DNA of 64,000 nt from Bilabrum cf. latius (Eukaryota): the NCBI GenBank assembly GCA_965178125.1, contig OZ237747.1, positions 558,001 through 622,000 of the forward strand. Direction: 5' to 3'. Numbering within the stretch: position 1 is the stretch's first letter; every line of letters begins with the position of its first letter. Below are positions 7,181-33,435 of the stretch, piece after piece. The notes beneath the pieces were generated by a model. The model searched no databases, was not told where the DNA came from, and saw only the letters and a list, made by a program, of their open reading frames with translations. Position numbers and translations under genes: made by a program.

Positions 7181-9610
7181 TCACCCGCACACCCGTTCCA
7201 CACATTCTCTAAGCACATCTTCAGGAGCATCTGGAGAAGCCGCAACCCCCCCCGTTCCGGCTTCCACAGCGGCGCCGTCTCCCGTGCCTCTGGACTTGCT
7301 ACCTCCTTCTTGCAGCCACGTATGCGCCAGCCTAGATCGCAGCACCGCCCGCGCCTTGTCGCCTGCAGCTGCAACCACAGCGAGCATTAGCAGCACGGCT
7401 TGCTCCACGACATTGGCCCGGACTGCCACGCTGGCTGCTACTGGAGGTGCTGACAGGAAGCCCTCATCACCATGACTGGCGTCACCCGTGAGCTCTGACT
7501 TCTTTGCCTCTTCCCCACTGCCTGCTTCGTCTGCCTTGCCAGCGCGCAGCCTGTACAGGACCTGGAGAGTGTGCCACTCCTGAGATGCATCCAAGTCCAC
7601 GAGTGCACCCCGTTTGCGGATGGCAGCTACGGCGGTCGCGAGTGTGGTTTCTAGCAGGATGCTATCTACAAGCAGGATGCCAGGGGCACCCAGCACCAGG
7701 GCACGCAGGCCTACCAGGCCGGTTTCCACGAGGGCAGCGTCGGTGCTGTCTGCAGCCATGCCGACGAACAAGGAATGCAGGCCATCCGCATGGCGGCCGA
7801 TCCTGAAGCCGAATGATACACACAGAGCGGGTATACACGCTGCGAGCGCCCGGCGCTCCCTTCTGTTCGTGGAAAGCTTAATGGCGTCAATCAGCTCACG
7901 CGTGGTGTCATCGTAGGCCACATGAGGGGGCGGGCCCCGTAGCAGTCTCAAGGAGTCGATGTTAGCCATTGTGCACAGCGCTCTGACGCAAGGTGAGTCG
8001 CAGGCGCTTGCTCTGCGCAACGCCTCCACTATCAGCGGGGCGTAGGGCAGGAGGGCGGCATCTGCTGGCCTCATCGAGATCACTCTGTAGAGCACGCTGA
8101 CGCCAGCGTATGCATTTGCGGGATCGGAATCAACCGAGAGGCCAGCAGCGACAGAAATGCAGCACGCAATCGTCTCTTTGGTGTTCATGGAGGCTCTCGT
8201 CTGGTTGCACGCGAGCCATGCCGCCCTCCACCTCGTGTGACCGTCGTCCTTCCACGCCTTCATCGCATCCCTCCCGAGCCGTACCAGGAGCTCTGCCCCG
8301 CACAGCTCCATCAGCATGGATATGCTTGCATCCAGTGATGAACGGGATGGCAGATGCGATGCTGGTGGCTCCGCAGACTTGCTTGATTCCATTGAGGCAG
8401 CCGCTTCGCTGCTACTGGCCGCGCGTTGGCCCGCTTCTTGCGAGCCCGGGCCACCAGCTGATCCTTCAAACAACTCAGTCGGTTTATCTGCCGCATCACC
8501 ACGCACTCCTGCCGCCAGACACGCGCACCACGCGGCTCTCCTCGCAATGGAGCGGCTTCCGAATGGCGTGCGAGGCAGAGCGATCGCGAGCGCTGGAACA
8601 AGCCATCGCGCGAGCTCGCCAGCGGTCGGCCAGGCCTCTCCCGGAGACACAGTAGTTTCATTGGTAGCTGTAGCATCGATTGCTCCAATGTCAGGTAGTG
8701 TTCCACCAGCCCCGAGCCCCCTGGCTTCGAGGCACCTCCTCACTGTATCCCACGCAGCCAGCTGCAAGCCGGCCCAGACGCTCGCACCTGTAAGTCGTTC
8801 CATGGTTTCTGCCATTTCCTCATCGTTTCGATACCTCCCATCAGTCTCGGGTGGACGCTCCTCGCCTGACTACGCCACACCTTCGAACCGGGCCGACTCG
8901 CGGGCAATCGCCGCGGTGGTGCCCGGTGTCACCGCAGCACCACCGCCAGTCTTGCCGCATCTTTTGGTGCACGGAGCTCCTCGCACGTGGTAGGCACCGG
9001 CTGGACCGAGAATGTCGTGTCCCCACTCGTCATCTTGTGCCCAAGTATCCGGCCCTGCCTTCGATGCCACACGGGGTGCATGCTTGCCGTCGTCCTGCAT
9101 GGCTCGTCTCCATGCGTGGTATACCGTACTTCTGGGGGGCCTCTCCCACCACCAAGCAAGCCCATCGTCTCCAAATGCAGTGAATTCGAGAGACCTTGCC
9201 AGCAGGATTGATTTGGAAGAGTCCTCCACAGAGTGCTATGGCGCTGTGATTCGTGTGACCGCCGCTGCAACTGCGTCTGATCCTGCAACCCAAATCGCCG
9301 CTATAGCATCTTTTTCGGTGATTTTACGCCCATCGTCATGTAGTACCGTATCAAACAAATGTGATCGCAGCCTTGGAATAGGAGCAACTGACCCTGCACC
9401 GAAATGGCGTAGGTCGGGCGGTGCACCTAGCCATTCCAATAGTCTACGAAGCAGTCTGGCAGTTGGTCTTGCTCGCTGCATCAGGCAGGAAATTCGTTTG
9501 ATGATCTAGCATGATACTTCTTGCACGCACTCAGTCGTCGGGGTCCACTCATTCGGATATAATGTGCGCAGGTTTCCCAACATATCATGGAGCTCGCTAT
9601 TGCCAGCCAT
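7181..9610 (-). CDS. TTI2: HEAT/ARM-repeat protein, TTI2 (TELO2-interacting protein 2)-like, about 809 aa
   Basis: ORFs 9236..9481, 8870..9229 and 7181..8815 are in one frame, joined by TAG at 9506, 9236 and 8870; ATG at 9610. The helical region AWKDDGHTRWRAAWL...SVDSDPANAYAGVSVLYRVI resembles Tti2. Confidence 0.6.
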
Positions 9611-9807
9611 TGTGGTTTCAGGCTCGCTCTAGTATGAGGAGCCGTATGAGAGTAACAAATCGATATGGCAAGGCTGCACAGCTCTGGATGTCATTCAAAC
9701 AGACGCTTTGATTGATCCTCGGCTGGCACTTGCCGCACTGGAATGCCTCATTTAGACCGGAGCTCCGTAATTCCCACATATTGTGCCGACCTAATTTCTC
9801 GATTGCC

Positions 9808-10823
9808 ATGGCATCATCTGCAGGAAGTGCTGTTCAAGAGTCAAAAGAAGATTCCAAAGAGTCTATTGTTGCAGAGATGGCCTCTAAACTACCCGATAAA
9901 GGATCCAAGTTGCCGATCGTATTCGGCCCAGTGCATTCACGCAACGTTGGAGCTGTGCGATTGCTTGTAGACCGTGTACTACCCGTTACATACAGCGATT
10001 CATTCTGGAGCAAACTTGTGCAGGGCACGAATGCCCTGTCCGTGATGGGTAAGGCAATAGCTACGGATGCCTTATTGTTCGAATCAGATTTGTCTGGCGC
10101 CTATGAACCAGCTGTCATTGTGCATTGCTTATTATCGCAGCTTATTTGTCTGATCTTTTTGTTGGTACCATTTGCACACGACTCGAGCGGCGGCCGGATG
10201 GCAAGAATAGAGCGTACATCATGATTCTTGCTGTGCTTCCCGCATACCGAACCATCGGAGTCGGCACGCAGCTGCTCAGGAGACTGATGCTAAAAGTAAT
10301 GGGCACAAAAGATGCATCAGCGAAGGATGAGGACTTTGGTACGATTGCCGCTGGCCTGGTTGGCAAGGATGGGAAGCCGACAGCACTGTCGCTCACCAAG
10401 TCATCCGGTGCTTCATCATCAGCCTCAGCACCAGCGTCAGCACCAGCACCGAGTGGAGGAGGAGGAGGTGGTGGTCGCCGCGGTCGCCGTCGCGGTGGTC
10501 GTAAGCGAGGAGGGGGTGGAGCAGCTGCCGCGGCAGCAGGGGGGGCCGCCAAGCCCGGGTCGGCAGGCTCAGCCGCTCCGAGCGCCGAGTGCGTGGAAGT
10601 CTACCTGCACGTGCAGAGCACGAACGAGGGCGCGCGCAAGCTGTACAGGAGCGCTGGATTTGATGAGGTGAAGGAAGTGAAGAACTACTACGGCAGGCTG
10701 GAAGACAAGGACGCCATGCTCCTGCGGTGGTGCGCTCCCGGGTCGGAGCCCAGCGTGGGCACGGGTGCGGACGGGGATGCGCCAAGCAAGGCAGCTGCCG
10801 GGGAGGGCGGGGCGGAGAGCTGA
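9808..10823 (+). CDS. NAA50: N-alpha-acetyltransferase 50 (GNAT)
   Basis: VLPVTYSDSFW, intron 10049-10140, AYLSDLFVGTICTR, AYIMILAVLPAYRTIGVGTQLL, VYLHVQSTNEGARKLYRSAGF, KNYYGRLEDKDA. TGA stop. Confidence 0.9.
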
Positions 10824-10898
10824 AAATAGTATTACTGCTCTATCCATCCTGTGAAGGTCACGCTGTACAAGTCACCTGAGTGCGTTTTAGAGTCCATC

Positions 10899-11278
10899 TC
10901 AAGGAATGAACCACAGCACGTCTCTCGCCACCGCCCCAAAGCAGTCCGCCAGCTCAAAGGGAGCAATGAAGAGCGGGCTAGCAACCAGGGCTGTTCCAAT
11001 CTGCACCCAGAAAGCCTGCCAAGGCGCTCTCTACTTCATGCCTAGCGACATGATCGCGACCGCTGCCACGGCCTGCAGCAGGAAGAACAAGAGCTGGCTG
11101 CCACCGCAGTCGTACTGCCTGCCTCCAAGCCACGGCACCTTCCGCCCCACTGCGCTGCATAGAGCCTCCGAGAATGACCAGCCCAGAGACCCCTCCGTTC
11201 CAGGGCTCAAGTCTGGCCCGATTCCGTCCCCAACCAAGTCAGATGCAGACAGACTCTCCCCCTCTCCGCCGGACCACC

Positions 11279-11311
<33 letters not shown>

Positions 11312-12452
11312 TTACAGGTGCTGCCGTGGGCAGTTTCGAGAGCGCAACGACGCAGACGAATTCGTGCCACAGACCAGATAGTATGAAAATGGCCACGGCG
11401 GGCCAAGGGCCGTCCCTAGTACCCACCATGCCTTGCACCATCCGTCCCACCCCAAGCTTCAGGGCCTGACTTACTGGCGCATGCCAAGAGTTGCCCCAGA
11501 AACTCCCGCGCCGCAGGATGCCCAGCCACCTCTCGTTGTCCTCAGTCAGCGATGGCACAGGCTCATATACGGCCAGAACCCGCGCCACGCCATCGGGTGC
11601 CTCACGAGCTCCGATCGTTGCGACCGGACCCAGCCCCTGTCTGCAGTCAGCGCCGGGGTCTACCACATAGGTGGCCCCGGTTGCGCGATGAATATCTCTG
11701 AAGCTGCCAGCCAGCTCTTCACTTAGAGCTTCGATCGAATCGTCATCGACCGCGTCATTCGATGGGTAGGACCCGAGGGGGTGGCGGGGTGGGGGCGGGG
11801 CCCGATTCTGCCTGTCACTGTGCCGTGCTAGTTGACATTTGGTCGTAGCCTATCTGGTAATGTACTGGTGCCTGAACTCTCCACGCACCAGAATACCAAT
11901 TCTGAAGCAGCTACCAACAGGAAAGAAAAGTCCGAATGGAACCTCGACTATTGTCGCTGGTTTTTCCAGCAGGTATCCGGCAACTTGTGGCGCAGTCTGA
12001 TTTGGAGCGGTGGCTAAATGTGTATAGGCACCGAACAACACAATGAATAAGCAAATGAGGTCCTCCATAAGCGCCATAGCTGCATACAGACTTGCACCGC
12101 GGCATACAATCCATAAGCATGTCGCTGGGACCGCAAGCAAAGGAATGCCAGCCAAGCTAGCAAACGGCATAATCTAGATGGAGGACAGCCAGCTTCCAAC
12201 CAGCATGCTCAGCCGGAACACGAGAGCGTGGCAAAGAAAGCGAAATAAAAAATACATAGTATTGCTTTCGAGGTACCCTCGCCAAAAGAGGCCAGGGCAA
12301 ATGTATCGGGAACTTGATTCCGGCCGAGTCGAGCTAGTTGGCTGTGGTCTAGATGCCCGCGTAATGGTTCCCCAGCCGACCACCAAAAACACCTGCAATA
12401 TCCATCGGAACATTGTCCATGCACCGCTGCTGCCAGCAGGTGTAGATGCCAT
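10899..12452 (-). CDS. MBOAT-family (wax synthase-like) O-acyltransferase, about 517 aa
   Basis: Single frame through TAG at 12174, 11850 and 11031 to TGA 10899. Motifs SFWGNSWH and FILSGLWHE (catalytic His); multiple TM segments. Confidence 0.75.
11281..11310. repeat. (GAC)10 trinucleotide microsatellite encoding poly-Ser in the MBOAT gene
   Basis: Perfect gac repeat read directly from the sequence. Confidence 0.95.
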
Positions 12453-13098
12453 CTCAAGCGCTGTTATTTGCAGCGGCGAGCTGAGGCGCTAGCCCTCACC
12501 CGCTGTCAAGCCGCTGCAATCAACCTCCTGAATGATTGCCTAACTCTTTGAAAATACAGCAAACAGCAACCCACACAGGAACATGTGAAACGCAGCTGAT
12601 TCGTACGTCACGCAGTACACCGAGACGCACGCAGCAGTTGCACTTGAATAGAGCAAGAGAATCACGTGCGATACAATTACCGGTGCCTTTCTCCTTTGCA
12701 CAATTCGAACCAGCGAGTGAAGCATAGGAATCCATAAAGTAAAGCAAACGAGAATCAGCACACCTGCAATCATCTTGTGGCGAAGATGTGCATTGTGGGT
12801 TGGTGCACTACAGTGCACTGCACGTCACACCACGGGTGGAGTGACTTATGCTTTGTCCAATTCTTGACCTTAGTCTCCGTACCTACACCACCTCCAATCG
12901 ATAAACAATCATCGTAATGCTGCACAGGCTTCTCGCCGCCGGCCTATCGGCGCGCCGGGTCTGCGAGCGCAGCATTTCCACGCTGGCGGGCACTCTACTT
13001 GCCATCAGGCTGCCAGAGAAACAGAAAGTACATCCAGAATCCATGCCCACCACCACAATCACCGCGCGAGCACCTCGAGTCGAAACCCAAAACCCACC

Positions 13099-15008
13099 TC
13101 AGCTTCCCCCGGGCCCACCGTGCGGCAGGGACACGTGCCCGGGCAGCGTCACGCCCTCACCGACGGCCCTCGAAACCGGCTCCGAGCTCCTGGCAGCCGC
13201 TGCCAAGCCCAACGAAGCCGCACCGCCACCGCTTGGGTCAGAGCGGGAAGTAGCGTCCTTCACCGTTCCTGCCTTGCTGGGCACCGCCTGCACCCCTGTG
13301 CCCTGGCTCAGGCCAGCCGCAGCGGCGATCGCAGGCGAGTTCTCTGCATCTGCCGCCGCCGAGCCACTCGCGCCCTCCTGCCCTTGGCCCCCAGCAACTG
13401 CGGCTCCGAGAGATGCTTTCACCGCGGGCGAAAGCACCCTGGACGGAGGCGACCGCACGTCCCTGTAGTTGGCCAGCACAACGCAGTAATCTCCCGCGAA
13501 CTCAGTGTGGCTCTTGTCGGTGAGTTTCCACCGCTGCGGATCTTCTCCCTGTGACACCGGCCCCAGCCCCGCCTGTCCCTGCCTCTCCGCCTCTTTGGCC
13601 ACCTCCTCCTGGCACTTGATGTACGGCTCCACAGGCAGGTCGGTCATCTCCTTGACTCCCTGCGCGTCGGCGAACAGGGTCAGGGTGAAGCGTCTGGGGC
13701 GGAACAGAGCCAGCACGGCCCGCACCAGAGGCCGCAAGGAACTTGCGCGAACGTTCGTCTCGAACGACGCGTAGCTGCAGTGCTTCTCTGGTGTCACGTG
13801 CACGGTCCAGTAGGAGCCGTCGAGCAGCCCATTCGCGCTGTACCCGCACGGCTCGAACATGTAGGCGTGGACCGTGCTGCCAGGGAGCACCGCCGTTAGG
13901 CCAGACCTCTGGGTCACGTACTAGGCCACTGCAGAGCTGGGGCCGGGGCAGGCCGCCAGTTTACCCAGGTCAGCGCGCGACTTGGCCTCCCCGGCCCCGA
14001 CCGCGGCGCCCTTCTCCTCTTCCTCTCGCTCGTCCGCGCCCTTGGGCTCGCTCCCCTCGCCCTCGCCCTCGGCAGGGGCCTCCTTGCTATCAGATTCGGT
14101 GGAAGCCGGACTGTCGCCGGCGACGCTTCCTTCTGATGCAGCCCCCGGCGAGTCTTCTTCTTCCTTACCGGATTTGGCAGAAGGCGCCTTGGCCTTGCTG
14201 CTCAGCTGCACACCGGCCTTCGCTGCCTCTTCCACCGCCTGGTCCTCGTGCAGCAGCCTGCTCATCCCGTCGCATATGTCAAACATCTTGATGTCTAGAG
14301 TCACATCCGTGCTCTCTGTGGGCGGCCGCTCGCAGTAGTCTGCGACGAAGACGACCCAGTGGTCCGACGTGAGAGGCCCGAGCACATGGGCGGAGCCAGT
14401 GGGGAAGAATCGGTGCAGGAAAGCGATCTGCGCGGGATCTAAAGAGAAGAGAATACTATACAATACAATGAATGGGTGAGGACAGGTATCAAGCGGCAAT
14501 CGCACACGCTATTCGTCGAGTGCTGATGGTGCAACGGCACCGACAATGCAGGCGAGCTGACTATCTCTGGCTCTCAACTGACCTCTTCGGTAGTGCTCCT
14601 GTGTGGAAATACCTGCTCCTACGGAAACAGAAAATCTTTGCGAGAGTATGCCACCCACTCAACTTCCATATTCTTGGCTGCCACCCGTTCCAGCAGCGGC
14701 GGCAGCATCCTGAGGAGGGTTGTCGTTCCGCAAGTCTTGGCGATTATTTTGTGCGAGTACACAAAGAGTGACGACTCGCTTAGCAAATATGCAGTACAGT
14801 CTTCATCCTAAATCTCTCCGAGTATTGAGCACTTCGCCTCATCGAGAATTGCTTGCCATTGGTCCTTCGAGATGCTTCGCATACCCTGCTTTGGCCCTTT
14901 GCTTGGCACAAAGTCAATTTCGAGATTCTTTTCCGGACCCTCGAAGCCAACCATTGCATCATCTGCCGACGATATAGCTGCGGTGCTGCCTGCTCCAGTT
15001 GATGCCAT
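13099..15008 (-). CDS. AMD1: S-adenosylmethionine decarboxylase proenzyme
   Basis: GFEGPEKNLEI, AYLLSESSLFVY (self-cleavage site), KTCGTTTLL, YSRKDFLFP*EQVFPHRS, intron 14428-14582, FEPCGYSANG, HVTPEKHCSYASFETN. In-frame TAG at 14808, 14619 and 13921; TGA stop. Confidence 0.95.
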
Positions 15009-15118
15009 GCTGCAGACGTATTGTCAAAGTAAGAACTGGCGATCGAGACACCTTGGTTGTAGAGCTGCAATGATGTCAATGAGATCCCCTACGTGCCGCT
15101 CCAAGAGGCACGTTTAGA

Positions 15119-15160
15119 TTAAGATATTCCCTGTGTTGATGATGGAAACGTCCTTCCCAT
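15119..15160 (-). promoter_or_regulatory. Candidate upstream ORF (MGRTFPSSTQGIS*) in the AdoMetDC 5' leader
   Basis: ATG at 15160 to TAA at 15121-15119, ending 110 nt before the AdoMetDC ATG. No other ATG lies in between. Confidence 0.35.
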
Positions 15161-15227
15161 GCAACAGCAGTTCGCTATGCTTGGAGTTGCCGTCGTGCCC
15201 TGTGGTGGTTCCGCAACACGATCATCA

Positions 15228-15238
15228 TGCGCGGCGCC
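15228..15238. promoter_or_regulatory. Recurrent intergenic motif TGCGCGGCGCC (copy 1; between the divergent AdoMetDC and NAL-like genes)
   Basis: Exact 11-mer also present at 16717, 23370 and 46879. Preceded by GTTCCGCAAC at 15208-15217. Confidence 0.5.
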
Positions 15239-15421
15239 GTGACGACGCACGAGTTTTCGATCTGGCAGTGAATGGCACAAAGAAGCGTTTCATCCATTGT
15301 GAGGCCGACCATTCGTTGGAAATAAGCTTAATTCGTGGCGAGCCTGTCGGATTCTCGTTTGTGGACCGTGTATCGTGCAAATACAGCTTTGGGTCTCGCT
15401 GCCAGCATCAATTGTCATCAT

Positions 15422-16588
15422 ATGGAAGCCGCTGTATCACTTTTCCACGCAGTCAGCTGTGGTACAATACGAATCGTACTGGCACTCATTGCTGCGGCAG
15501 CCGGCGTCAAAGCCCGATTCTTGGCTGTGGACCCGGTGTTCACACCGTTCAGGCGCGACAATGGCCACCTCAATCTAACAGCAGTACCTGGCATGGCGAA
15601 TGCCAGTCGCTCCCAGGGTGCTGATATTGTTTTATTGGGAGGCAGCACCGGCGATTGGCCGTCCTTGTCCGTTGATGAGCGCATCGAGCTGCTGAAGTCG
15701 TGGTCCGCAGCGCTTGATGCCATGCACGACACCGACGTCGGCACCGAGCGCCCTATGAAGCTCTTATTCCATGCAGGGCACACAGATGTCGAGCAGGCGC
15801 GGCAGCTTGCCGCGGCAGCAGAGGAACACGGCGCCGATGCGATCCTGGCAGTTGCTCCGGGCGTAGTGTACCGGCCACCACCCGGACTCGAGGGCGCCAG
15901 GCAGGTGGCGCAGCAGCTGGGATACATCGCTGCTGGGGCACCTTCTCTCCCTCTGTGGTACTACCATTTCCCGGGGCTGTACACAGTGGACGTGGACGTG
16001 CCTGCTCTCGTCAGCTATGCCCTCACCGGAGAGGCGCCGCCCTCGAGCGACACCCCCCTCGCCCTCGCTTCTGCTCCAAGGCCAAGATCCACCGCAACCA
16101 ACAGGACGGGGCGCCTAGTTCCGGTTTCTGCGACCACCGGGTCCGAGGCAAGTGCTCCGCTTGCACCCACCCTGCGAGGCATCAAGTACATCGACACGAA
16201 TGTAGACGACGTGCAGCGTGCACTGCGGGTCGCGAAAAGGGCCGGAGAGGGCAATTTTTCTGTCTACATCAAGAACCCGCTAGCTGTTGCCTGTCTGCCA
16301 ATTGGCTGCGACGGGGCTCCGGTGCAGACGCTGGGCGCCCGCGTGCAGGTCGAGCTGGGGCAGGCCTGGGACCGGGGGGACGTGAAGGGGGCGCTGGACG
16401 CGCAGTACAAGCTGCTGGAGCTGGCCGACGTATTCGGCAAGTACGGCGCGCTGCAGCTTGGGCGTGCTGCCTACAAGCTTCAGTATGGCGTGGATCTGGG
16501 TCCTCTGCGCCTCCCCCAGTATGACCTGCAGGGCGAGGAGAAGGAGGCCGGGCTCAAGGCGCTGCGAGCCATCGGGATCTTGAATTGA
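15422..16588 (+). CDS. DHDPS/N-acetylneuraminate lyase family class I aldolase with a hydrophobic N-terminus
   Basis: VFTPF, LGGSTGDWPSLSVDERIEL, HAGHTD, GADAILAVAP, LWYYHFP and Schiff-base Lys in LRGIKY. TGA stop. Confidence 0.85.
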   Translation: MEAAVSLFHAVSCGTIRIVLALIAAAAGVKARFLAVDPVFTPFRRDNGHLNLTAVPGMANASRSQGADIVLLGGSTGDWPSLSVDERIELLKSWSAALDAMHDTDVGTERPMKLLFHAGHTDVEQARQLAAAAEEHGADAILAVAPGVVYRPPPGLEGARQVAQQLGYIAAGAPSLPLWYYHFPGLYTVDVDVPALVSYALTGEAPPSSDTPLALASAPRPRSTATNRTGRLVPVSATTGSEASAPLAPTLRGIKYIDTNVDDVQRALRVAKRAGEGNFSVYIKNPLAVACLPIGCDGAPVQTLGARVQVELGQAWDRGDVKGALDAQYKLLELADVFGKYGALQLGRAAYKLQYGVDLGPLRLPQYDLQGEEKEAGLKALRAIGILN

Positions 16589-16716
16589 GGTCGATAGAAG
16601 TGCGTGTGATATTGCTGTTGCGTACAGTGCGTGTGTACCGATTTCATCTCATAACGGCCCAAGGCACGGCAATGCAATCCTGGATCCAGGCTCGGAAGAT
16701 GTTCCGCAACGAAGGT

Positions 16717-16727
16717 TGCGCGGCGCC
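16717..16727. promoter_or_regulatory. Motif TGCGCGGCGCC (copy 2), about 42 nt upstream of the PACRG ATG
   Basis: Exact 11-mer, preceded by GTTCCGCAAC at 16701-16710 as in copy 1. Confidence 0.5.
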
Positions 16728-16769
16728 GATCTAGCTGCCCGAACGGATAAACATCAGTTCGCCTGCAGA

Positions 16770-17905
16770 ATGGCTGCAGTAGGCGGCAGTGCCGGTCGTG
16801 ATGAATTAATGGGATTTACTGTCAAAGAGCTTGTCACTACGCTGCGAGAAGAGGAGAAAGCAGCTAGTGGGGCAGCCGCTCGAGGCAAGAGCGTAACCAA
16901 GCCGCACAACTTGCCTCATAGGGAGACTCGGTCTCTTTTTGACAGGACCAAGGTGAGGCCTGATATAATTCTCTTGCTACTGCAATCTTTCTGTGTTGTG
17001 ACTGCGTCACAGATTTTGTCGTTGCAGCAATAATTGATCCGATTTCAAGCTTTTGGTCGTACCATTCACTTTCACAGGTGTTGTCTTCAGCCGTGAGGCC
17101 TGCTGGGGGTCATCCGCATTCTAGAATGGATGATGATGGCAGCATGGAGGTAAATGCGTTCCGACCAGGTCTGGCGACCATGCGCCCTGACCCTGGCAGG
17201 TTTCTGCTGCGCGGGGGAGGCACCGGAGGAATGGCAACTACGGCCTTGAAAGCTCGAGCCCTGAAGGCTGACAGCGTGCCTTTGAAGCCCCCACCGAAGG
17301 CAGGTGCCATGAAGATTCGGCCGAATCCACCGAACACTTCGTTGAGGTTTTACTACGAGAGGGGCGACTTGCCGTGCAAGATCAGCCAGAAGGGCGTGAA
17401 AAACAAGCTTGCCTGGAAGCAGCCGATCGATACTTTGGATTTTAATTTCTGGCTCCCTGTGTTTATGGACGGCGTCCGCGAGGAGGAGGACCCTTACCAG
17501 TTCATTGCCATGGACGGCGTCACGCAGCTGCTCGACAACGGAGGCTCGAAGATCCTCCCCACCCTCCCAGTGCTGATCATGCCCATCAAGCAGGCGCTCA
17601 ACACGAGGAGGCCGATCGTCGTATGCAGGATGATGAAGGTCCTGCAGAGGCTGGTCACCGCGGATGCGCACACGAAGCGACCAACGATCGGCCGGGCGCT
17701 TGTGCCGTACTACCGCCAGATCCTGCCCGTGTTCAACCTGCTCGCCCTCAAGAACAAGAACCTTGGCGATGGAATTGATTATGCGCAGCGGAAGGGCGAG
17801 AACCCTGGGGATCTGGTGAGCCAGACGCTCGAGCTGTTCGAGGAGTTTGGTGGGGAGGAGGCACTGGTCAACATCCGGTACCTCGTGCCATGCTATCCCA
17901 TCTAA
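16770..17905 (+). CDS. PACRG: Parkin co-regulated (PACRG) family axonemal protein
   Basis: Intron 16953-17077. Motifs LRFYYERGDLP, LDFNFWLPVFMDGVREEEDPYQFIA, GRALVPYYRQILPVFNL, NLGDGIDY, GGEEALVNIRYLVPCY. Ends in TAA 17903-17905. Confidence 0.93.
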
Positions 17906-18148
17906 GGCACGCACGCGAAGTCGCAACGCTGGAGGAGCTGTGGCTAGGAGGCATTGCTCCGTGCCTATTTCCTCCGCATGGTTTGGCGCATTCCGTGTGG
18001 CCTCGCGGCCCCCGGCGTGCCGTACCCGCGGCTTGGTTGATTTGAATACTCGATTCACGCGACAACTAGCCGTGCCCGGGATATCTGGATTAATCTAGTA
18101 CGCGCAAACACTTAATGTAACCCTCAAGCCGGGCATCATCGGGATAGA

Positions 18149-21783: not shown

Positions 21784-23318
21784 TCACCACTCGAACTTGT
21801 GGACGGTCGTGTGCGAGTACACCTGACCGGGCCTCAGCACGGTGGACGGGAACTCGGGCCGGTTCGGGCTGTCGGGGTAGTGCTGGGTCTCCAGGCACAC
21901 GCCGGCCCACTGCACGGGCTCTAGCCAGTTGCCGGTGTAGACCTGCACGCCTGGCTCGGTGGTGTCGACGTGCATCTGCCTGCCGGACTTGGGGTGCCCC
22001 AGGGTGGCGATGAAAGCCGGGTGCCCGCCCACGTGCCTAGCCGCTACTTCCGGTTTGTCGCTCCTGACGAAGCAGTGGTCCAGGCCGTTCTTGCCCCCGC
22101 CTTCGCCGCCGGCCTTGCCCAGGAGCTCCTCACTCAGGTGCACCCCATCCGCACTCATGGCAGACTCGGCAGGGGCGGGCGCGCTGGCTCCCTCTCCGCC
22201 GGAATCGCCGCCACTAGCGGCCGCTGCAGCCACAGCAGCCGTGTGGAAGTCCATGGTGGGGTGCCCATCCACAGAGACGTACTTGCCCGTTGGGATCTGC
22301 GTGTCGTCCACCTCCAAGAAGGCCTCGCAGCCCGTCTTGAGGGTATGTCCGCACACCGTCTCCTCCTTCCCGTCCCCACTCAGGTTCCAGTACGTGTGAT
22401 TCGTCAGGTTCACGAACGTCGGCTTGCTGGTCCGCGCCTCGTACGTCCACCCGAGGTGGTTCATGTCGTTGAGCCACACCCGGCACGTTGCCTCCAGCTC
22501 GCCGGGGTAGCCCTGGTCGCCATCAGGAGAGGTGAGCGAGAACTTGACCTGCTTGATGCCGTCCTTCTCCACGATCTCGCCCTCCCAGCGCCGCTGGTCG
22601 AAGCCGTCGTCGCCCCCGTGCAGGTGGTTCGGGCCGTTGTTCGTGGCCAGCTCCAGCTCCTCGCCGTCCAGCTCGCACTTCCCCTTGCATATCCTGTTTC
22701 CATACCGCCCTACTGTCATGCCCTTGTACGTGCCTTTAGCAGCGCTTACGACCGAGTCCAGCGAAGAACGGTCGTGCACGGTGATTTCCTCCGCTGGCCC
22801 GTCCGCGCTGGGGCAGCGAACGGAAATGATGCACACGCCAAGCTCCAGAACAGTTGCTGACAATCCTTTGGAGTTCCTGCGAGAAGGATGGAGGGAAGTA
22901 TGAGTGTATGTAGCGCGTTACTTCGGTGCGATGGCAGAATTTGGTGCGTGGGTCTGGCAATTGGCCCGACATCAGTCGGTTGTTCCTGCTCGCAGTTGCG
23001 ATGCCGGAAGAGGGGTGGCCGTCGGCGCTTACGATAATGTAAATGCGTGGATGTCCTCTGTTTTTCCATCAGCAGTCTCTCTGGAACCAAATACAGATTT
23101 CTGCAATATATTGAAGCACAAGACTACTTTCGCATGGGATCAACGAGCAGCTGCCGACCTCAACAATCGCGACGCGGAAACTACACGTAGCATCACAATC
23201 CATCTGTTCCGGTGTATCTCACCGAAACTCCAGCCTTAGTGGCTAAAGACCTCTTTCCTATTGCGCTACTTCCTGATGCTGCCGCCATTCTCAAGAAACG
23301 GGAGGTCGATCGCAGCAT
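21784..23318 (-). CDS. GALM: Aldose 1-epimerase (galactose mutarotase) copy 1, with a putative mitochondrial presequence
   Basis: N-terminus MLRSTSRFLRMAAASGSSAIGKRSLAT; introns 23101-23222 and 22877-23032. Motifs GRYGNRI, NHLHGG, GDQGYPG, NLTNHTYWNL, GLDHCF, CLETQHYPDSPN. TGA stop. Confidence 0.93.
22312..22880. repeat. Inverted repeat arm, near-identical to the reverse complement of 24171-24739; a second block about 21750-22090 pairs with about 25078-25418
   Basis: Direct comparison of the two GALM copies. Identity extends about 34 nt into the 3' UTR. Confidence 0.9.
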
Positions 23319-23369
23319 TTGTGTGTATCGACGAGCCGCCGCGATGCGAATACGGAACCACGAATCCAA

Positions 23370-23380
23370 TGCGCGGCGCC
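23370..23380. promoter_or_regulatory. Motif TGCGCGGCGCC (copy 3), about 51 nt upstream of the GALM copy 1 ATG
   Basis: Exact 11-mer in the divergent intergenic region; CGGAAC (reverse complement of GTTCCG) is nearby at about 23353. Confidence 0.5.
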
Positions 23381-23787
23381 GACGAACCCTTGCAGTAGGG
23401 AAACATGCTGCTAAACAGCCATGAGCTGAGGTGTTCGAACTAAATTAATCGTGACAATGTTTGCATTTGTACTCAGTATCTCCAACCATAATTAATCTTC
23501 AAAAGTCACGACGCTACGCTGGCTTCGCCGGGAATCATTCACACATATCACGTATCAAAAGTGCCAGTAGGAGCGATTCAATTGTTCAAATGCTAGATTA
23601 TTCTCAGTACGCCGTACGAATGGACATGAGGTATTCAACGGAGGTTCAACTTGAACGAAGTTCCGGGTACTACTGGCAGTTGCACTTGGGCTATTGTAGC
23701 CAAAAAACGGAAGCAGGCAGCGTTAAACAGATCTAAGCTATTGTATTTCAGAATTAAATACTAGAGAGATTTTCACCCTGGACTGGA

Positions 23788-25384
23788 ATGGCGTCAGTGT
23801 AGCTCAGTACCTCTAGTGGAGCCATGGGTTCAGACACTGACATCAAGGTATGCAGACACTGCGTTGCAGTTGATGGAAGCGCAGTACACGTGAATTAATT
23901 ATGATAATGTTTCAACTTAGGTGTTGGCTGATGCTGCAGGCTAGGGTGCTTCACGATCAATATGTCCATTACGCGCAGAAATTCGTATTTGGCACCCGTG
24001 AAGCTGGTAGCGCAAGCAAAGACGCAAAGAAGGAGACTATCCATGCTTTTTTGCTATCGTAAGTTCACAGAGTTTTGGGTTGTCGTGGGGTCTTGATTTC
24101 CTGGCGCCTCGCGTATCTTAGAGTGACAAAGTGGTAGCTCTACTTTTTGTGGGTAGGATCTCCAATGTGCGCAGGAACTCCAAAGGATTGTCAGCAACTG
24201 TTCTGGAGCTTGGCGTGTGCATCATTTCCGTTCGCTGCCCCAGCGCGGACGGGCCAGCGGAGGAAATCACCGTGCACGACCGTTCTTCGCTGGACTCGGT
24301 CGTAAGCGCTGCTAAAGGCACGTACAAGGGCATGACGATCGGAAGGTTTGCGAACCGCATATGCAAGGGGGAGTGCGAGCTGGACGGCGAGGAGCTGGAG
24401 CTGGCCACGAACAACGGCCCGAACCACCTGCACGGGGGCGACGACGGCTTCGACCAGCGGCGCTGGGAGGGCGAGATCGTGGAGAAGGACGGCATCAAGC
24501 AGGTCAAGTTCTCGCTCACCTCTCCTGATGGCGACCAAGGCTACCCCGGCGAGCTGGAGGCAACGTGTCGGGTGTGGCTCAACGACATGAACCACCTCGG
24601 GTGGACGTACGAGGCGCGGACCAGCAAGCCGACGTTCGTGAACCTGACGAATCACACGTACTGGAACCTGAGCGGGGACGGGAAGGAGGAGACGGTGTGC
24701 GGACATACCCTCAAGACGGGCTGCGAGGCCTTCTTGGAGCAGGATGACACGTGCATTCCCATAGGGGAGACAGTTGGGCTTCGTGCGCACCCGCTGCTTG
24801 GGGGATGCTATCAGGGCCAACCAAGACAAGAAAGCGCAGCTGCTACGGATAGCATAGCTACAGCCGGGGGTGAAAGGGCAGATGATAGAGCAATGGAGGC
24901 TGTGGGTAACAGCAAAGTGATCACAGAATCAGCTGGTAGTGCTAGCGATGCAGCAGGTGGTGGTGCACCGACAGATGACCTTGATGGTGATGGTGATGAT
25001 GGTGATGGTGAGTTTGGCGGGGGGCTCATGCTCTCCGCGGAGCTTCTCACCAAGATCGGCGATAAGAGCGGAGGCAGGAACGGCCTGAACCACTGCTTCG
25101 TCAGGAGCGACAAACCGGAAGTAGCGGCTAGGCACGTGGGCGGGCACCCGGCTTTCATCGCCACCCTGGGGCACCCCAAGTCCGGCAGGCAGATGCACGT
25201 CGACACCACCGAGCCAGGCGTGCAGGTCTACACTGGCAACTGGCTAGAGCCCGTGCAGTGGGCCGGCGTGTGCCTGGAGACCCAGCACTACCCCGACAGC
25301 CCGAACCGGCCCGATTTTCCCTCCACCGTGCTGATGCCCGGTCAGGTGTACTCGCACACGACCGTCCACAAGTTCGAGTGGTGA
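23788..25384 (+). CDS. GALM: Aldose 1-epimerase copy 2, lacking a presequence
   Basis: N-terminus MASV*LSTSSGAMGSDTDIK (TAG at 23800; alternative ATG at 23824). Introns 23848-23978 and 24059-24174 are at the same positions as in copy 1. Same motifs except GLNHCF. TGA stop. Confidence 0.92.
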
Positions 25385-28062: not shown

Positions 28063-31000
28063 TTACTACGGGCACTGCATGCTGTAGGATGTGCGGTCAG
28101 GACACATGGGATGAAAGCTACCACTGGCAGGCCCTGCTCCTCCCCCTGGCACTCCCGCCCCTTCATCCGTGCATGTCTAGTTGACCACCTGCGCGAGCCG
28201 CGCGACCGCTAGTCGGTTATCAAGGTGACAGGCCAGCGAGAGTTCACTGCTCGTTTCGGCAGCGTCCTCGATTACCAGGAGGTAGGAGTCAACCCCTGGC
28301 ACGGGGGCCAGGAAATACGACCCCCGGAAGCACGTGGTCCTCACAGTTCCTGCCACCACCCCGCCAGCGGCTTGGATAGCAGTCGGTAGAAACTCAAGAG
28401 ATCGGACCTGCTGCACGCATCCGAACGTGTTGTCGAATGGATCAAAGTCACCGCGCGTGCGAGCAAACGTATCGGCTTCTGCTGCAGTCTACGTGATTCC
28501 ATCCAGCGTCACCGGGACTCTGTCTTGATCACGAGTCACGCTGCAGCTGCCCTGGTAGTCAATGGAATCGACCCGCCTCGCGTACCCGTGGCGCAAGAGG
28601 TCCAGCATCACTGGACCCGCCCTTTCGCCTAGACTCACGCTGGAGTAGTCTGCCTCAGCGGCGGCTTTAAAGTCTACAAACCCCGGGTCCAGCTGCAGCA
28701 GCCCAGCACTGTCCACCAGGAAACACCTAGTCTCACAGAAGAAATCCCCGTCCAGCCATCCCTCGGGGCAATCGTAGGTTTGGTAGCAACCCCTGTCCCC
28801 AATGGCATGACTGTCGGCCCACTTGAACATGGTCTGGGAGAGCATCGTTTGGAAGTCCTTGTAGATGAAATCGATCCCAGCTACGCCTTCCAGCTCTGTG
28901 GAAGAGCAGTGGCCTCCGTAGCACCTGCCGGACACGCACTATGCGCCAGAGGTGCAGGCGATTAGAGAGCCATTGTCTCTCCCCGCAAATACTGGGGATG
29001 CCAGCGTGCTGATTCTGTGGCCGGATGCGGCGTCCAGATACGGGGTAGTGAGTCCCAGCCTCCCTTGGCTGGCCAGTCCACGGCGGTACCAGGGCCTCGC
29101 CATTGGATCAAACGCATGCGGCATGCGGGTGCCGGGATAGATCCGGAACACTCCCTGAACTGTCGAAGTGTGCCGCCAAATGACATCACTCAAAGTACCG
29201 TCCAGTGTTGCCGCTGCGATCCACGCAGGCTCAACTGCATGGGTCAGAGCCACGTCAGGGCGCACCTGCTTCTACGTGCGAAAGTCAGCACTATCGGTGT
29301 CCACGCTGGCGCCAGGAACCTCTGCAGATGCGTTTGCCAAGCTGCATCCTGCATTTGGGTACTGGCTAGTAGTGCCTGCGTAGCTTGCTCGCATAAAGGC
29401 ATCGATGTAGGTGAAAGAACGGTCTGCAGTCACGTCCACAATGTACTCCTCTGCCTTACAGAAGGCAGAAGGTGCCAGCTTGTACGCGGAGTGCCGAGTG
29501 CTTATCTACATACTGGGGTAGAGCCTGTCGTCCCTGCCCTTAGTCTCAATGTGCAAATCATCGATTCGTGCCTGTGGAATGCGGCTGGAAGGATCTTGGT
29601 ACTTGTCGAGTCGGTGGTAAAACTCATCACCAGCTTGTGCCACCCTCCCGGCGTTGCCGTCCCCTGTGCCCACTGCCACGCGAAACTGCCCGTCTTCAGG
29701 GCCAAACACGTACGCGAAGGAAAAATCAGTGCCTGGAATGTTGCTGAAATAGTAAGTCTAGTCGCGTTCAACCACCGTGTTTCCATCCAGCTTGTCGCCC
29801 TTCGGAAGCCTCCTCTTCATGTTCGGGATGGTAACTTGGCCCGTGCTGCCAGTGAGCATGGGTGCTCTGACCTGCCGCATGAAGGCGTCGAACTGAACGG
29901 TGCCTGGTGTTGCCTCTAGCTATGCCACGTCGGGGTAGATCGGATCCGACCTAAGCTGGCTAGAGGGCCGCAGCAGAGGATGGACAATCGCGCGGCCTTC
30001 GCCGTTGATCAAGAAGGCATAGACCGTGCCCCACTTCTGACTCATGAGAGTGTTTTCCGCCTCTTGCAAGGTGGCATCAATGCCCACGATGCCCTGAAAC
30101 TCCTTTCCGATGTATACGGGCGCAGAGGCAGTCATGATGAGGCCAAGCCCGGAGGTGTCGATGTACGGGCGGCTCAGAATCGCCGTGCCACCTTCGATCG
30201 ATTCGCGCAGGTAGTCGAAGTACGGCCTCAACGCATCAAACACCGTGTTTCCAGACCACAGAGGAAGGACTTGTCCATGCGTGTCGCAAGCACCATCAGA
30301 AATCACGGTAGGTCCGCTGGGCCCCTGCAGATTGATAGCGAAGACGCGATGGCCCATCGATCCCACCTATCGCGCCACGTCTCTCATCTACTCGGCATCG
30401 AGGCCGGCATTCTTGCTTGAGTAGTAGTCGATGCACACCTCGTGCTCGTAGCACGTTTGGTTACCATCTGCGTTAGTGTAGCAAGTCTGCTCCATGTGGC
30501 AGTCTGTGTGCGAGTACGCCTGCACGCTGTTCGTATCGAGGTTGTCCGAATCGGTGATGAGCACCACGAGCGTGTCGCAAGCTCGAGTGCTGCCAAGGAG
30601 CAGCCTTTGAGTGAGATCGATTGCCTATGTCCAGTCCTGCTTCCCGTCGAAGATGCTTGGATTCAGCTTGTCCAACACTTGCTTCTTGTTCGCAGGAGTA
30701 GCAAACTGCACCGTATCTCCGCCGCACCCCAGTGCTCTAGTGCGCTTGGACCTGAATGAGATCTGCGACGACGTGCACACAGGACGGCCACATGATGCAT
30801 AGTGATAGGAGCCTTTCATGCACACCACATTAAATCTATCTTGCGGCGTGAGTGAATCAATGACAGCACGAGCTGCATCGAGCGCGGGTCCGCTCCTCCG
30901 GCTCATGCGCATGCTTGTGGTGCAGTCCATTAGAATTACCACATCTTTCTGCGACGAAGATGAACCGACGTACCACGGTCTTGTCAGCGGGTTGTAATCC

Positions 31001-33435
31001 TCCGTGAAACCAAAGTAGTTTCGCGCCCGGCGGCGGCCAGGCATAGACCGGAAAGTCCCCGTTCGGTGTCCCAAGTACGCCCAGCGCACGGCAGGGTCGG
31101 CCATGTGTGGGGCGTAAAGCTCTTCATCAAGGCTATTTGTTGCCCACGCAGCAGCCAAAGCCCCGGTCGAGGGGTTTGTGGCCGCCTGACTATTGGGGTC
31201 ACGATCAGCAAAGCTGGGGATCTTGACGGTCGAGTGGTCGAAGCTCACCCGCCGCTGATAGCGAGCGTCGAACCGCTCCCCGGGTACCTCTAGAACGATG
31301 TCGGTGTCGTAGAACGAAGGCCTTGCTACCATATTTTCCCGGGCAGTCGCCTACAACTTTGTGGCAACATCGGCTGCAAGCGACTGTACTAGCTAGATCT
31401 TGCCGTGAAAGAAGGTGGCAAGGCTGTCACGCACGGACTCGACCAGCTGGGTGCCGTTCCGCAGCTCAGTGGTGTAATTGGCAGCATCGTATATTGCCTA
31501 CACTTCGTCACGGCAAAGCTACGTGTCTGCAACAGAGTTCAACTTGTTGCTGATCGCTGATGCCAAATCTCTGGAAAGGGCAGGTGTAAATGACGTGGCA
31601 CTGGCATTACCCATCACACTGCACGCCACGACAGCAGCAATGACCACTGGCAATGCATGCCTCGACCAACCACTCAAACGGAGACCAAATGCACCAGACT
31701 ACGGTTCATAGGCACAGCCAAAGCTGGAAGCGGCAAAGAAGCCTGCGACCAGTATCGCAAAGCCACAGCTGACACTCCGCGCGATCTAGCGCGAGCCATT
31801 GGCGCTAGGCACGTTTCCTGAGAATACCCGGTGGTTAGCTTCCACCCCAAAGCATGTGGCCTTAGCACGCGCTTCTAGATCATTCGTGTTGCCATACCCC
31901 GACAAAGGTGGCTCATCGTGGACAGTGACAGGGGAGAAACCCATGGCCTGGCACAATGCGGTGCCGTTGCCGAACTGCGCTGTCACTGTGTCTTCCAGCG
32001 GGCCTGGCACCACAGCATTCTCGCACGCGCGATACATAACGTTGCAGTACCCCTCGCACACGCGCACCTGCTGCTGCTCGACCTCATGCCCAAGGAAGAA
32101 ATCGGCCTGCCTGGAGGAGCAAGGGGAGCAGGTTAGGTAGCTAAACGCAGCGGCGCAGTCCCGACCTGCTTGCAGCAGGCGCGGCGGGGCCTCGGTCATG
32201 GCCACCACTTCCGGGTTAGTGCAGCATGTGTTGTCTTGGAACAATCCACAGCCGCTGAGCTGGTAATTTGGAGCGGACACCCTGCCTCCACCGATGTAAG
32301 GACACGCGCGGCTCGACAGCTACCGACCTCGTGCGTCTGCTGCTGCGGCGAGCTACCCAACCTGCAGTGTTTGCTCCTGCACGGCCCCAACCGGCGGTTC
32401 GTACGCCTCCAATTTGCACTAGCCGTGATATGTGTGTGAGCTAGCTGAGACTTGAGGGGTACAGAGTGCGAGAAACACAACTGTAATTCCAGCGGCAACG
32501 GTAGCTTGGGGGCCTCCGGCGGAGTGTGGCGCTGACGACGACTGGCCCAGAAAGGCCCCCCTAGCAGCTGAGGCAAGCAGTCCTGCAGTGACAGCTGCAA
32601 AACCAGCGACTACACAGAATGAAGAACGCTGGTGCGTCGCGCGATGTGCGGATGAGTCGTCACGATGGTGTGGGAACAGCTCGTCGCCGGGCCTGACACC
32701 AAAGCACCCATACCGCTCGCCGGGGGTGCCCTCAGGATCGCCACCGGCTCCGGATGAGTCATCCACCACGGTGTATCCCTGTAGAGTACACATCAAGGAA
32801 CCAGACCCGAAAGAATCGCGCAGCGTCTTTCCCTTCCAGTCCGCGTTGCCGCAGACGTCAAACAGTGTATCGCACATCGACTTGCAGACCGCGACCTGCC
32901 TTCTCCTGAGGTCGTAAAAGTACTGGCTGTCTGGAGAACAAGGCCAGCAGTACATGTAATTGAGAGCTCGGAGGCAGTCAGCGCTTCTAGTCTTCAGCTG
33001 CGCGCGAAGATACAGACATGGCAGTGGCGATGATCGATCCGGACATACCGATACTACACGCGAAACAGTGATCGCCCGACGGATTATATTTGTCATCAGG
33101 GAATTCACTCAGTTGGTAAGGGGTGCGTTCAGTTTCATCTTGAGGTGGTAGTATGATTTCATCGGAGTGAAGGTGCGAGAATGGGCCGGAACTTCGCGGC
33201 TCACACTCACCGGTGACGAGCCGCTAGGCAAAAAGACTTGCATTTCAGTAGAACTACAGCAAGCGCTCGCGGAGTACCATTGTGAACAATTGCCTGACGC
33301 GAGCGGGGCCGGGGCTCTGTTGTTGAAGAATGGGCAAAACTAATCGTCCGCACTCTCTTCGTAGCTCAGCCAAAAGCCTTCAGATCGCGTTAAGAGTAGT
33401 TGAACAATAAGATGATACGCAGCACCGTGCCACAT
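28063..33435 (-). CDS. Secretory protein with two folate-receptor-like Cys-rich domains plus VWA and Cache domains (CACHD1/alpha2-delta-like), about 1719 aa
   Basis: Signal peptide MWHGAAYHLIVQLLLTRSEG and intron 32998-33210. One frame with 21 TAG codons. Motifs YNPLTRPWY, KDVVILMDCTTSM, SRPYIDTSGLGLIMTASAPV, FDPMARPWY, TTPYLDAASG. Ends TAG-TAA at 28068-28063. Confidence 0.85.

Follow-up and report, generated by a model that had tools for sequence, protein, structure and literature searches.

The nuclear genome sampled by our window, a stretch of 64,000 nucleotides (G000:C13:558001-622000) within a eukaryotic assembly of 48.6 Mb in 111 contigs, uses UAG for glutamine and UAA and UGA as stop codons, three codon meanings that we establish by comparing gene sequences. 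We consider it highly probable that UAG became a third glutamine codon in this nuclear genome through a tRNA with a CUA anticodon and an altered eRF1, with UAA and UGA left to terminate translation. To our knowledge UAA and UAG have nearly always been reassigned together, the few exceptions coming from uncultured or poorly sequenced organisms. Here the tRNA, eRF1, and GlnRS all lie in one assembly, which makes UAG reading alongside UAA stopping directly testable.

UGA and UAA terminate genes

The window has about 59% G+C and is tightly packed with long frames once TAG is taken as a residue. Gene ends in the window comprised 22 TGA and 2 TAA codons over 24 genes (23 tabulated plus a gene ending at 2408), as an earlier note on this DNA had counted. 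That note took UGA to dominate termination and proposed a genome-wide count of terminal codons; we made this count at the C-termini of marker genes, where 45 dynein and Rab/Ras ends yielded 38 TGA, 7 TAA, and 0 TAG codons, extending the dominance of UGA to the genome and confirming UAA as a stop codon. Dynein heavy chains with a clear last motif (n=18) ended in TAA three times and in TGA 15 times, one TAA directly following QLDD as TGA does in a paralog, and Ras-family genes (n=27, from 30 loci minus L092, L095, and L101, whose matches end in or near an intron) gave 4 TAA, 23 TGA, and 0 TAG. Small GTPases with a terminal motif of the CC, CXC, or CaaX type (n=20) carried 4 TAA and 16 TGA, and the eRF1 gene itself terminates in TAA.

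We also ran a self-trained coding model on 137 stretches that total 797,879 bases and in which dynein, GTPase, kinesin, kinase, and tRNA loci are over-represented. It retained 80 of 289 frames, 65 ending in TGA and 15 in TAA (one being the in-frame case on C2 described below). The remaining 209 lay at an edge (62), were not coding-like at the end (34), or carried a donor-like word (113), and this census overlaps with the marker-gene sets. Sequence 3' of TAA was as non-coding as sequence 3' of TGA (medians -11.3 and -12.3, p=0.25). Overall, about 15-19% of genes end in UAA and the remainder in UGA. The UGA share was 81% as observed versus 69% as predicted by flanking triplets (p=0.02), a modest excess, and base composition probably accounts for most of the dominance of UGA.

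Table 1. Coordinates in the window of the two genes that end in TAA.
Feature	Position	Strand	Basis
PACRG exon 1	16809..16952	+	Joint 16950-17076, GT..AG, in X1, X2, and X4; joined frame open
PACRG intron, GT..AG	16953..17077	+	Spliced contigs
PACRG exon 2	17078..17905	+	Pfam ParcG domain to at most 2 residues from stop
CAG, Gln233 of the 259-aa PACRG frame	17822..17824	+	TAG at the equivalent site in L102
PACRG TAA stop	17903..17905	+	Follows ...IRYLVPCYPI; within unbroken spliced contigs 17076-18065; TGA in the L102 ortholog
PACRG 3' untranslated stretch	17906..18065	+	Contig-covered; differs from L102 flank
VWA/Cache-domain frame, 20 in-frame TAG	28063..33096	-	Pfam and frame listing
VWA/Cache TAA stop	28063..28065	-	Aligns with TGA of L164; X1 contig covers 27896-29900 ungapped
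Last sense codon of VWA/Cache gene, TAG (Gln)	28066..28068	-	Paralog L164 has a residue there

Both TAA ends in the window withstood closer inspection (Table 1). The earlier note had PACRG ending in TAA where the family domain ends, and we find ...IRYLVPCYPI-TAA two residues past the Pfam ParcG match, which spans residues 71-257 of 259 and profile positions 1-181 of 183; the gene starts in an upstream exon (16809-16952) that had gone unnoticed. The C-terminus is 4-5 residues shorter than in distant homologs, so the domain end alone is insufficient proof of a stop and a test was needed. This shortfall would fit a genome in which UAA and UAG both encode glutamine and TAA ends are read through, as in the UAR code that the accessible text of a ciliate study gives as the commonest variant (PMC11687900).

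Contigs from X1 and X2 cover 17076 to 18065 and 18059, respectively, with neither a gap nor a differing letter. We took X1, X2, and X4 as transcript-like because their contigs skip GT..AG introns; none is recorded as RNA, and such contigs cannot show transcript ends or poly(A). Since the X1 and X2 contigs run ungapped across 17903-17905, an intron concealing the PACRG stop is ruled out. In L102, a metagenome-derived relative with 89% identity, PACRG ends at the identical residue but with TGA, the 3' flank is unrelated, and TAG stands for the CAG of Gln233, so that a single gene displays both a TAA-TGA swap and a TAG-CAG swap. Two database proteins (P0001 and P0005) are truncated precisely at this Gln233 site, a practical sign that gene callers cut proteins of the host lineage short at TAG.

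For the VWA/Cache gene, reading the frame directly returned the CCG-TAG-TAA end (28068-28063, minus strand) reported earlier. In the paralog L164, two residues separate the last Cys from TGA, and in the window a Pro is followed by TAG and TAA, so that the window's TAG is a residue and its TAA a stop. The frame also begins with two folate-receptor-like stretches, and of the gene's two paralogs one bears a longer hydrophobic tail.

These TAA codons occupying the TGA positions of paralogs and orthologs, together with flanks as non-coding after TAA as after TGA, refute a UAR=Gln code, to which we attach practically no probability: UAA stops translation here and is not read as glutamine as it is in NCBI table 6.

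UAG lies within genes as a glutamine codon

The absence of TAA from the window's frames is circular, as those frames were cut at TAA, and we therefore turned to profile matches and to the coding model. Across 333 profile matches (25 Dynein_C, 65 Ras, 95 kinesin, and 148 kinase), we counted about 206 in-frame TAG (by hand, 13+48+60+85), 4 TAA, and 13 TGA codons, and all 4 TAA and 12 of the 13 TGA were intronic, lying beside GT donors or AG acceptors. The earlier note had named in-frame TAA at conserved Gln positions elsewhere in the genome among the observations that would count against it, and none of the four TAA was exonic. Its wider statement that CAA is used and TAA never appears in frame was correct for CAA (469 CAG, 144 CAA, and 91 TAG in 23 window frames) and, within the profile matches, for TAA, with one candidate exception outside the window.

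This candidate emerged from a flanking test on codons preceded by 40 coding-like open codons, in which the coding signal continued past 215 of 464 TAG and 267 of 549 CAA, versus 2 of 51 TAA (4%) and 14 of 274 TGA (5%). One of the two TAA lies in a doubtful frame. The other, at G000:C2:428541 (L169:1541-1543), sits midway in a single-copy frame of ~520 codons that is coding-like on both sides, the open stretches flanking it being about 220 and 300 codons long, and searches for a paralog, homolog, or Pfam match of this orphan frame found none. This TAA may be a nonsense allele, an assembly error, or a site of readthrough. It is also what speaks for a dual meaning of UAA set by context, as in Blastocrithidia or Condylostoma, with UAA acting as a stop at gene ends and, rarely, as sense inside genes. 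We regard such a dual meaning as very improbable, given that TAA and TGA fare alike in the flanking test, that no TAA in the profile matches is exonic, that an incomplete tRNA census found no UUA tRNA, and that a similar lone exception exists for TGA (L128), as broken alleles or assembly errors would give. Nor do the codons follow the pattern of context-dependent codes, since TAA is not found inside genes and TAG is both absent from gene ends and undepleted near them.

The TGA exception is a kinesin-like frame (L128, G000:C14:146677-146928) that carries an in-frame TAG-TGA just before the P-loop with no clear intron; its TGA may reflect a broken allele, an error, or readthrough.

At conserved columns of paralog alignments, TAG stood opposite Q in 13 of 15 cases and opposite Y in none, compared with 12 of 14 for a CAA control. 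Pairwise alignments placed TAG against Q of the relative in 4 of 5 places and, over 38 places in paralogs, against Q 16 times, TAG 8, E 7, other residues 7, and Y 0. Column 44 of eRF1 is TAG where 115 of 117 homologs have Q. TAG makes up about 11-13% of glutamine codons and stays at a share of 0.08-0.12 toward gene ends, without depletion; single frames bear 12-20 TAG codons, and TAG is scarce in GC3-rich frames, which are likely highly expressed.

A single CUA tRNA resembles tRNA-Tyr

The earlier note predicted a suppressor tRNA with a CUA anticodon, and we found one nuclear gene for it, a single copy with a clean cloverleaf at G000:C23:907607-907679, in addition to one tRNA-Gln(UUG) and two tRNA-Gln(CUG) genes. 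It also proposed a check that tRNA-Gln(UUA) is absent. We combined two anticodon-loop patterns with an Rfam search that gave 48 matches and scored 63 of its 780 candidates, and no UUA-anticodon tRNA turned up in this census; the patterns miss intron-bearing or atypical tRNAs, and tRNAs for His, Trp, and Leu were not recovered either, so absence is unproved. A 'tRNA-Stop(tta)' candidate reached only a relaxed score, was flagged as a possible pseudogene, and recurs as a string at three places, and we rejected it, as we did a second Tyr tRNA candidate (C14:1156686) that does not fold.

We then asked which tRNA of its own genome the CUA tRNA most resembles. The best overall score was to Tyr(GUA) (50), followed by Glu (44), Gln(UUG) (43), and Gln(CUG) (42), so tRNA-Gln(CUG) is not its closest relative there. 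We then compared it arm by arm with the rest of the nuclear tRNAs, 28 once Phe and long Ser had been set aside. It matched Tyr at 12 of 14 acceptor-stem and 8 of 10 anticodon-stem positions, with one compensated pair change in each stem. The resulting 20 of 24 stem identities compare with 12 for Gln(CUG) and 6 for Gln(UUG) and exceed all 355 different-isotype pairs, which are non-independent and reach 17 at most. The C1-G72 pair and the 5-base variable loop are likewise common to the CUA tRNA and Tyr but not Gln. The D region, by comparison, scored 16 with Glu(CUC), 15 with Gln(UUG), and 11 with Tyr, and Gln(UUG) shares with the CUA tRNA both G73 and 13 of 17 bases in the T arm.

The accessible table of a review lists A73, C1-G72, G34, and U35 as eukaryotic Tyr identity elements and includes G73, G2-C71, U35, and A37 among the bacterial Gln elements, its eukaryotic Gln entries being blank (PMC9976931). 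Of the Tyr elements, A73 and G34 are gone from the CUA tRNA, in which G73, G2-C71, and A37 occur. Because it retains C1-G72, a mark of eukaryotic Tyr identity, charging with glutamine is not obvious from its sequence. Since TAG sites are glutamine sites, however, we infer for this one genome that the tRNA is Tyr-derived or mosaic and would now be charged by GlnRS.

An E. coli tRNA-Tyr suppressor bearing G73 inserts glutamine; our literature search returned no paper on it. Bacterial amber suppressors derived from tRNA-Trp, tRNA-fMet, and tRNA-Ser that GlnRS mischarges offer a related precedent in the accessible part of the review, in that a non-Gln tRNA carrying U35 takes on the identity of a Gln tRNA. 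The bacterial Gln determinants G73 and G2-C71 are both present in the CUA tRNA at places where the host's tRNA-Tyr has A73 and U2-A71; unlike the host's natural tRNA, those suppressors are laboratory mutants (PMC9976931).

We are evenly poised on a fuller proposal, in which a stramenopile lineage (the host and at least one relative ~11% apart in PACRG protein) would have gained UAG as a glutamine codon by co-opting a tRNA-Tyr copy, with G34C producing an amber suppressor and A73G, a G2-C71 pair in place of U2-A71, and a D-arm of the Gln type moving it from TyrRS to GlnRS; this code would also be the first uncoupled one with UAA as a minor stop. If true, a nuclear code would have changed in nature by a switch of tRNA identity rather than by an anticodon change in tRNA-Gln, and a suppressor of tyrosine ancestry would reveal a second route to UAG=Gln.

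The CUA tRNA may instead descend from tRNA-Gln, the source that has been predicted in other UAG=Gln codes, with its likeness to Tyr arising by chance, convergence, or a later patch. Its D region, T arm, and G73 favor such an origin, as do the absence of Trp and His tRNAs from the census and the strong dissimilarity of the two Gln tRNAs, which indicates that tRNAs drift fast in this genome. Against it stand the stem identities, higher for Tyr than for either Gln tRNA and above the best pair of other isotypes, the compensated nature of both stem differences from Tyr, and the C1-G72 pair and variable loop that Gln lacks. Descent from tRNA-Gln is in our judgment a serious possibility, if a somewhat doubtful one.

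The two Gln tRNAs (L013 and L140) agree at 7 of 14 acceptor and 2 of 10 anticodon-stem positions, with G73 in tRNA-Gln(UUG) and U73 in tRNA-Gln(CUG). A set of tRNA-Met(CAU) genes (L025, L135, L139, and L145-L147) has an acceptor stem and D region like those of tRNA-Pro(UGG), some with C73, and may be a further instance of a tRNA taken over from another amino acid.

eRF1 has changes beside the GTS loop and GlnRS shows no obvious oddity

The genome holds one eRF1 gene on C35 (L001, G000:C35:454483-457782), the remaining matches being Pelota-like. Compared with 117 homologs and numbered by the human chain, conserved columns are changed by A27T, R28K, G29A (A29 depending on an exon 1/2 junction placed by GT-AG alone), N30D, I35V, S60V, L84Q, E107Q, and K130H, and G31-T32-S33, E55, NIKS, S70, Y125, C127, and F131 are kept. 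Two TAG codons fall in the N-domain, at columns 44 and 69; column 69 is L in 111 of 117 homologs and Q in 4, and Q69 also occurs in PDB chain 8ip8. In yeast eRF1, according to the available portion of a mutational study, L69A raised readthrough, slightly more so at UAG, and N30A had no effect (PMC4381064). There is one GlnRS locus and one GluRS locus, and an alignment of the GlnRS to solved GlnRSs showed no obvious oddity.

From these sequences we would expect the single-copy CUA tRNA to decode UAG and the sole GlnRS to charge it with glutamine. The same tRNA should not read UAA, its C34 being unable to pair with an A, and UAA would be left to eRF1. The eRF1 changes A27T, R28K, G29A, and N30D beside the GTS loop, with S60V, L69Q, and K130H, may weaken the reading of UAG, reading of UAA and UGA being kept.

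The earlier note held that eRF1 must reject UAG. Because single frames hold 12-20 TAG codons, such rejection is likely, although the tRNA might instead outcompete a partly weakened eRF1. At the far end of the latter idea, eRF1 would still read UAG and the CUA tRNA would mostly win, making UAG a leaky sense codon. The lone CUA tRNA gene, the unaltered T32, NIKS, S70, Y125, C127, and F131 of eRF1, and the scarcity of TAG in GC3-rich frames are consistent with such leakiness. We nevertheless think it unlikely, as frames so rich in TAG demand near-complete reading, the eRF1 N-domain itself requires two TAG to be read, the TAG share of glutamine codons does not fall toward gene ends, and none of the 45 marker genes ends at TAG. 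Those two TAG codons, in a gene that ends in TAA, could provide feedback on UAG termination.

Relation to known codes

The same code, UAG=Gln with UAA as a stop, is described in the accessible texts for Iotanema spirale (PMC5304391) and for the ciliates Hartmannula sinica, Trochilia petrani, and Protocruzia tuzeti (PMC11687900). Iotanema spirale shares all three codon meanings with our host and likewise leaves UAG unused as a stop, but belongs to an unrelated lineage, the Fornicata, and terminates mostly at UAA (104 of 119 ends) where the host does so at UGA (PMC5304391). Its eRF1 carries T32G where the host keeps T32, and both proteins leave the consensus at positions 28, 29, and 130 (PMC5304391 and supplement), a weak lead because the Iotanema spirale eRF1 is divergent throughout. 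Within the available part of each report, the suppressor tRNA was not identified in Iotanema spirale, where an origin from tRNA-Gln(CUG) was predicted (PMC5304391), and was not found in the ciliate UAG=Gln cases (PMC11687900).

The rhizarian exLh and the TARA phyllopharyngean ciliates (UAG=Leu) and Scotinosphaera (UAG=Ser) have uncoupled UAG as the host has, but for other amino acids. The CUA tRNA known from two genomes of the UAG=Leu ciliates derives from tRNA-Leu, whereas the stems of the host's tRNA point to tRNA-Tyr. The UAR=Gln codes of Tetrahymena, hexamitids, and ulvophytes resemble the host's in reading UAG as glutamine and possessing tRNA-Gln(CUA), but differ in that UAA is also read, by a UUA tRNA.

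UAA is the main stop in exLh (56 of 71 ends) and, in the portion of the ciliate study available, in all of its species (PMC11687900). With UAA ending only ~1/6 of genes here, the published argument that UAA survives as an entrenched main stop is not the whole story. We located no published stramenopile or bicosoecid nuclear UAG=Gln case and no literature on a Tyr-derived UAG suppressor in searches that left most subscription papers outside, and an unindexed report may exist. As far as these searches reach, the code itself is already known, and what is new is its occurrence in a stramenopile, probably bicosoecid, lineage, with UGA as the main stop and a Tyr-like suppressor.

Host organism and window content

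The best named protist match of PACRG was Cafeteria (56%). In a quick tree, for which 53 rows were picked among the top 45 matches and the named ones, the window and L102 joined Cafeteria with an SH-aLRT of 97 at a point where long branches meet. The mitochondrial contig (G000:C111, 38,401 bases) reads UGA as Trp (code 4), has a UCA tRNA, and terminates all complete frames listed with TAA; accessible descriptions of Cafeteria and Cafileria mitochondria report code 4 and tRNA-Trp(UCA) likewise (PMC6723347, PMC6972860). For cox1 the sole named match was an oomycete (78%), with two other cox1 relatives at 94% and 89%, and neither cox1 nor eRF1 searches returned a close named relative. The host is likely a stramenopile and, on a placement by the PACRG tree and the mitochondrial code, probably a bicosoecid.

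The labels TIM21-like and MBOAT-like and the motif names given to the PACRG C-terminus are putative and go beyond Pfam support. Positions 21784-25384 of the window contain two aldose 1-epimerase genes in inverted orientation with near-identical ends. Gene order is conserved between L102 and window positions 7181-17905 apart from two genes, at 10899-12773 and 15422-16588, that L102 lacks a match for.
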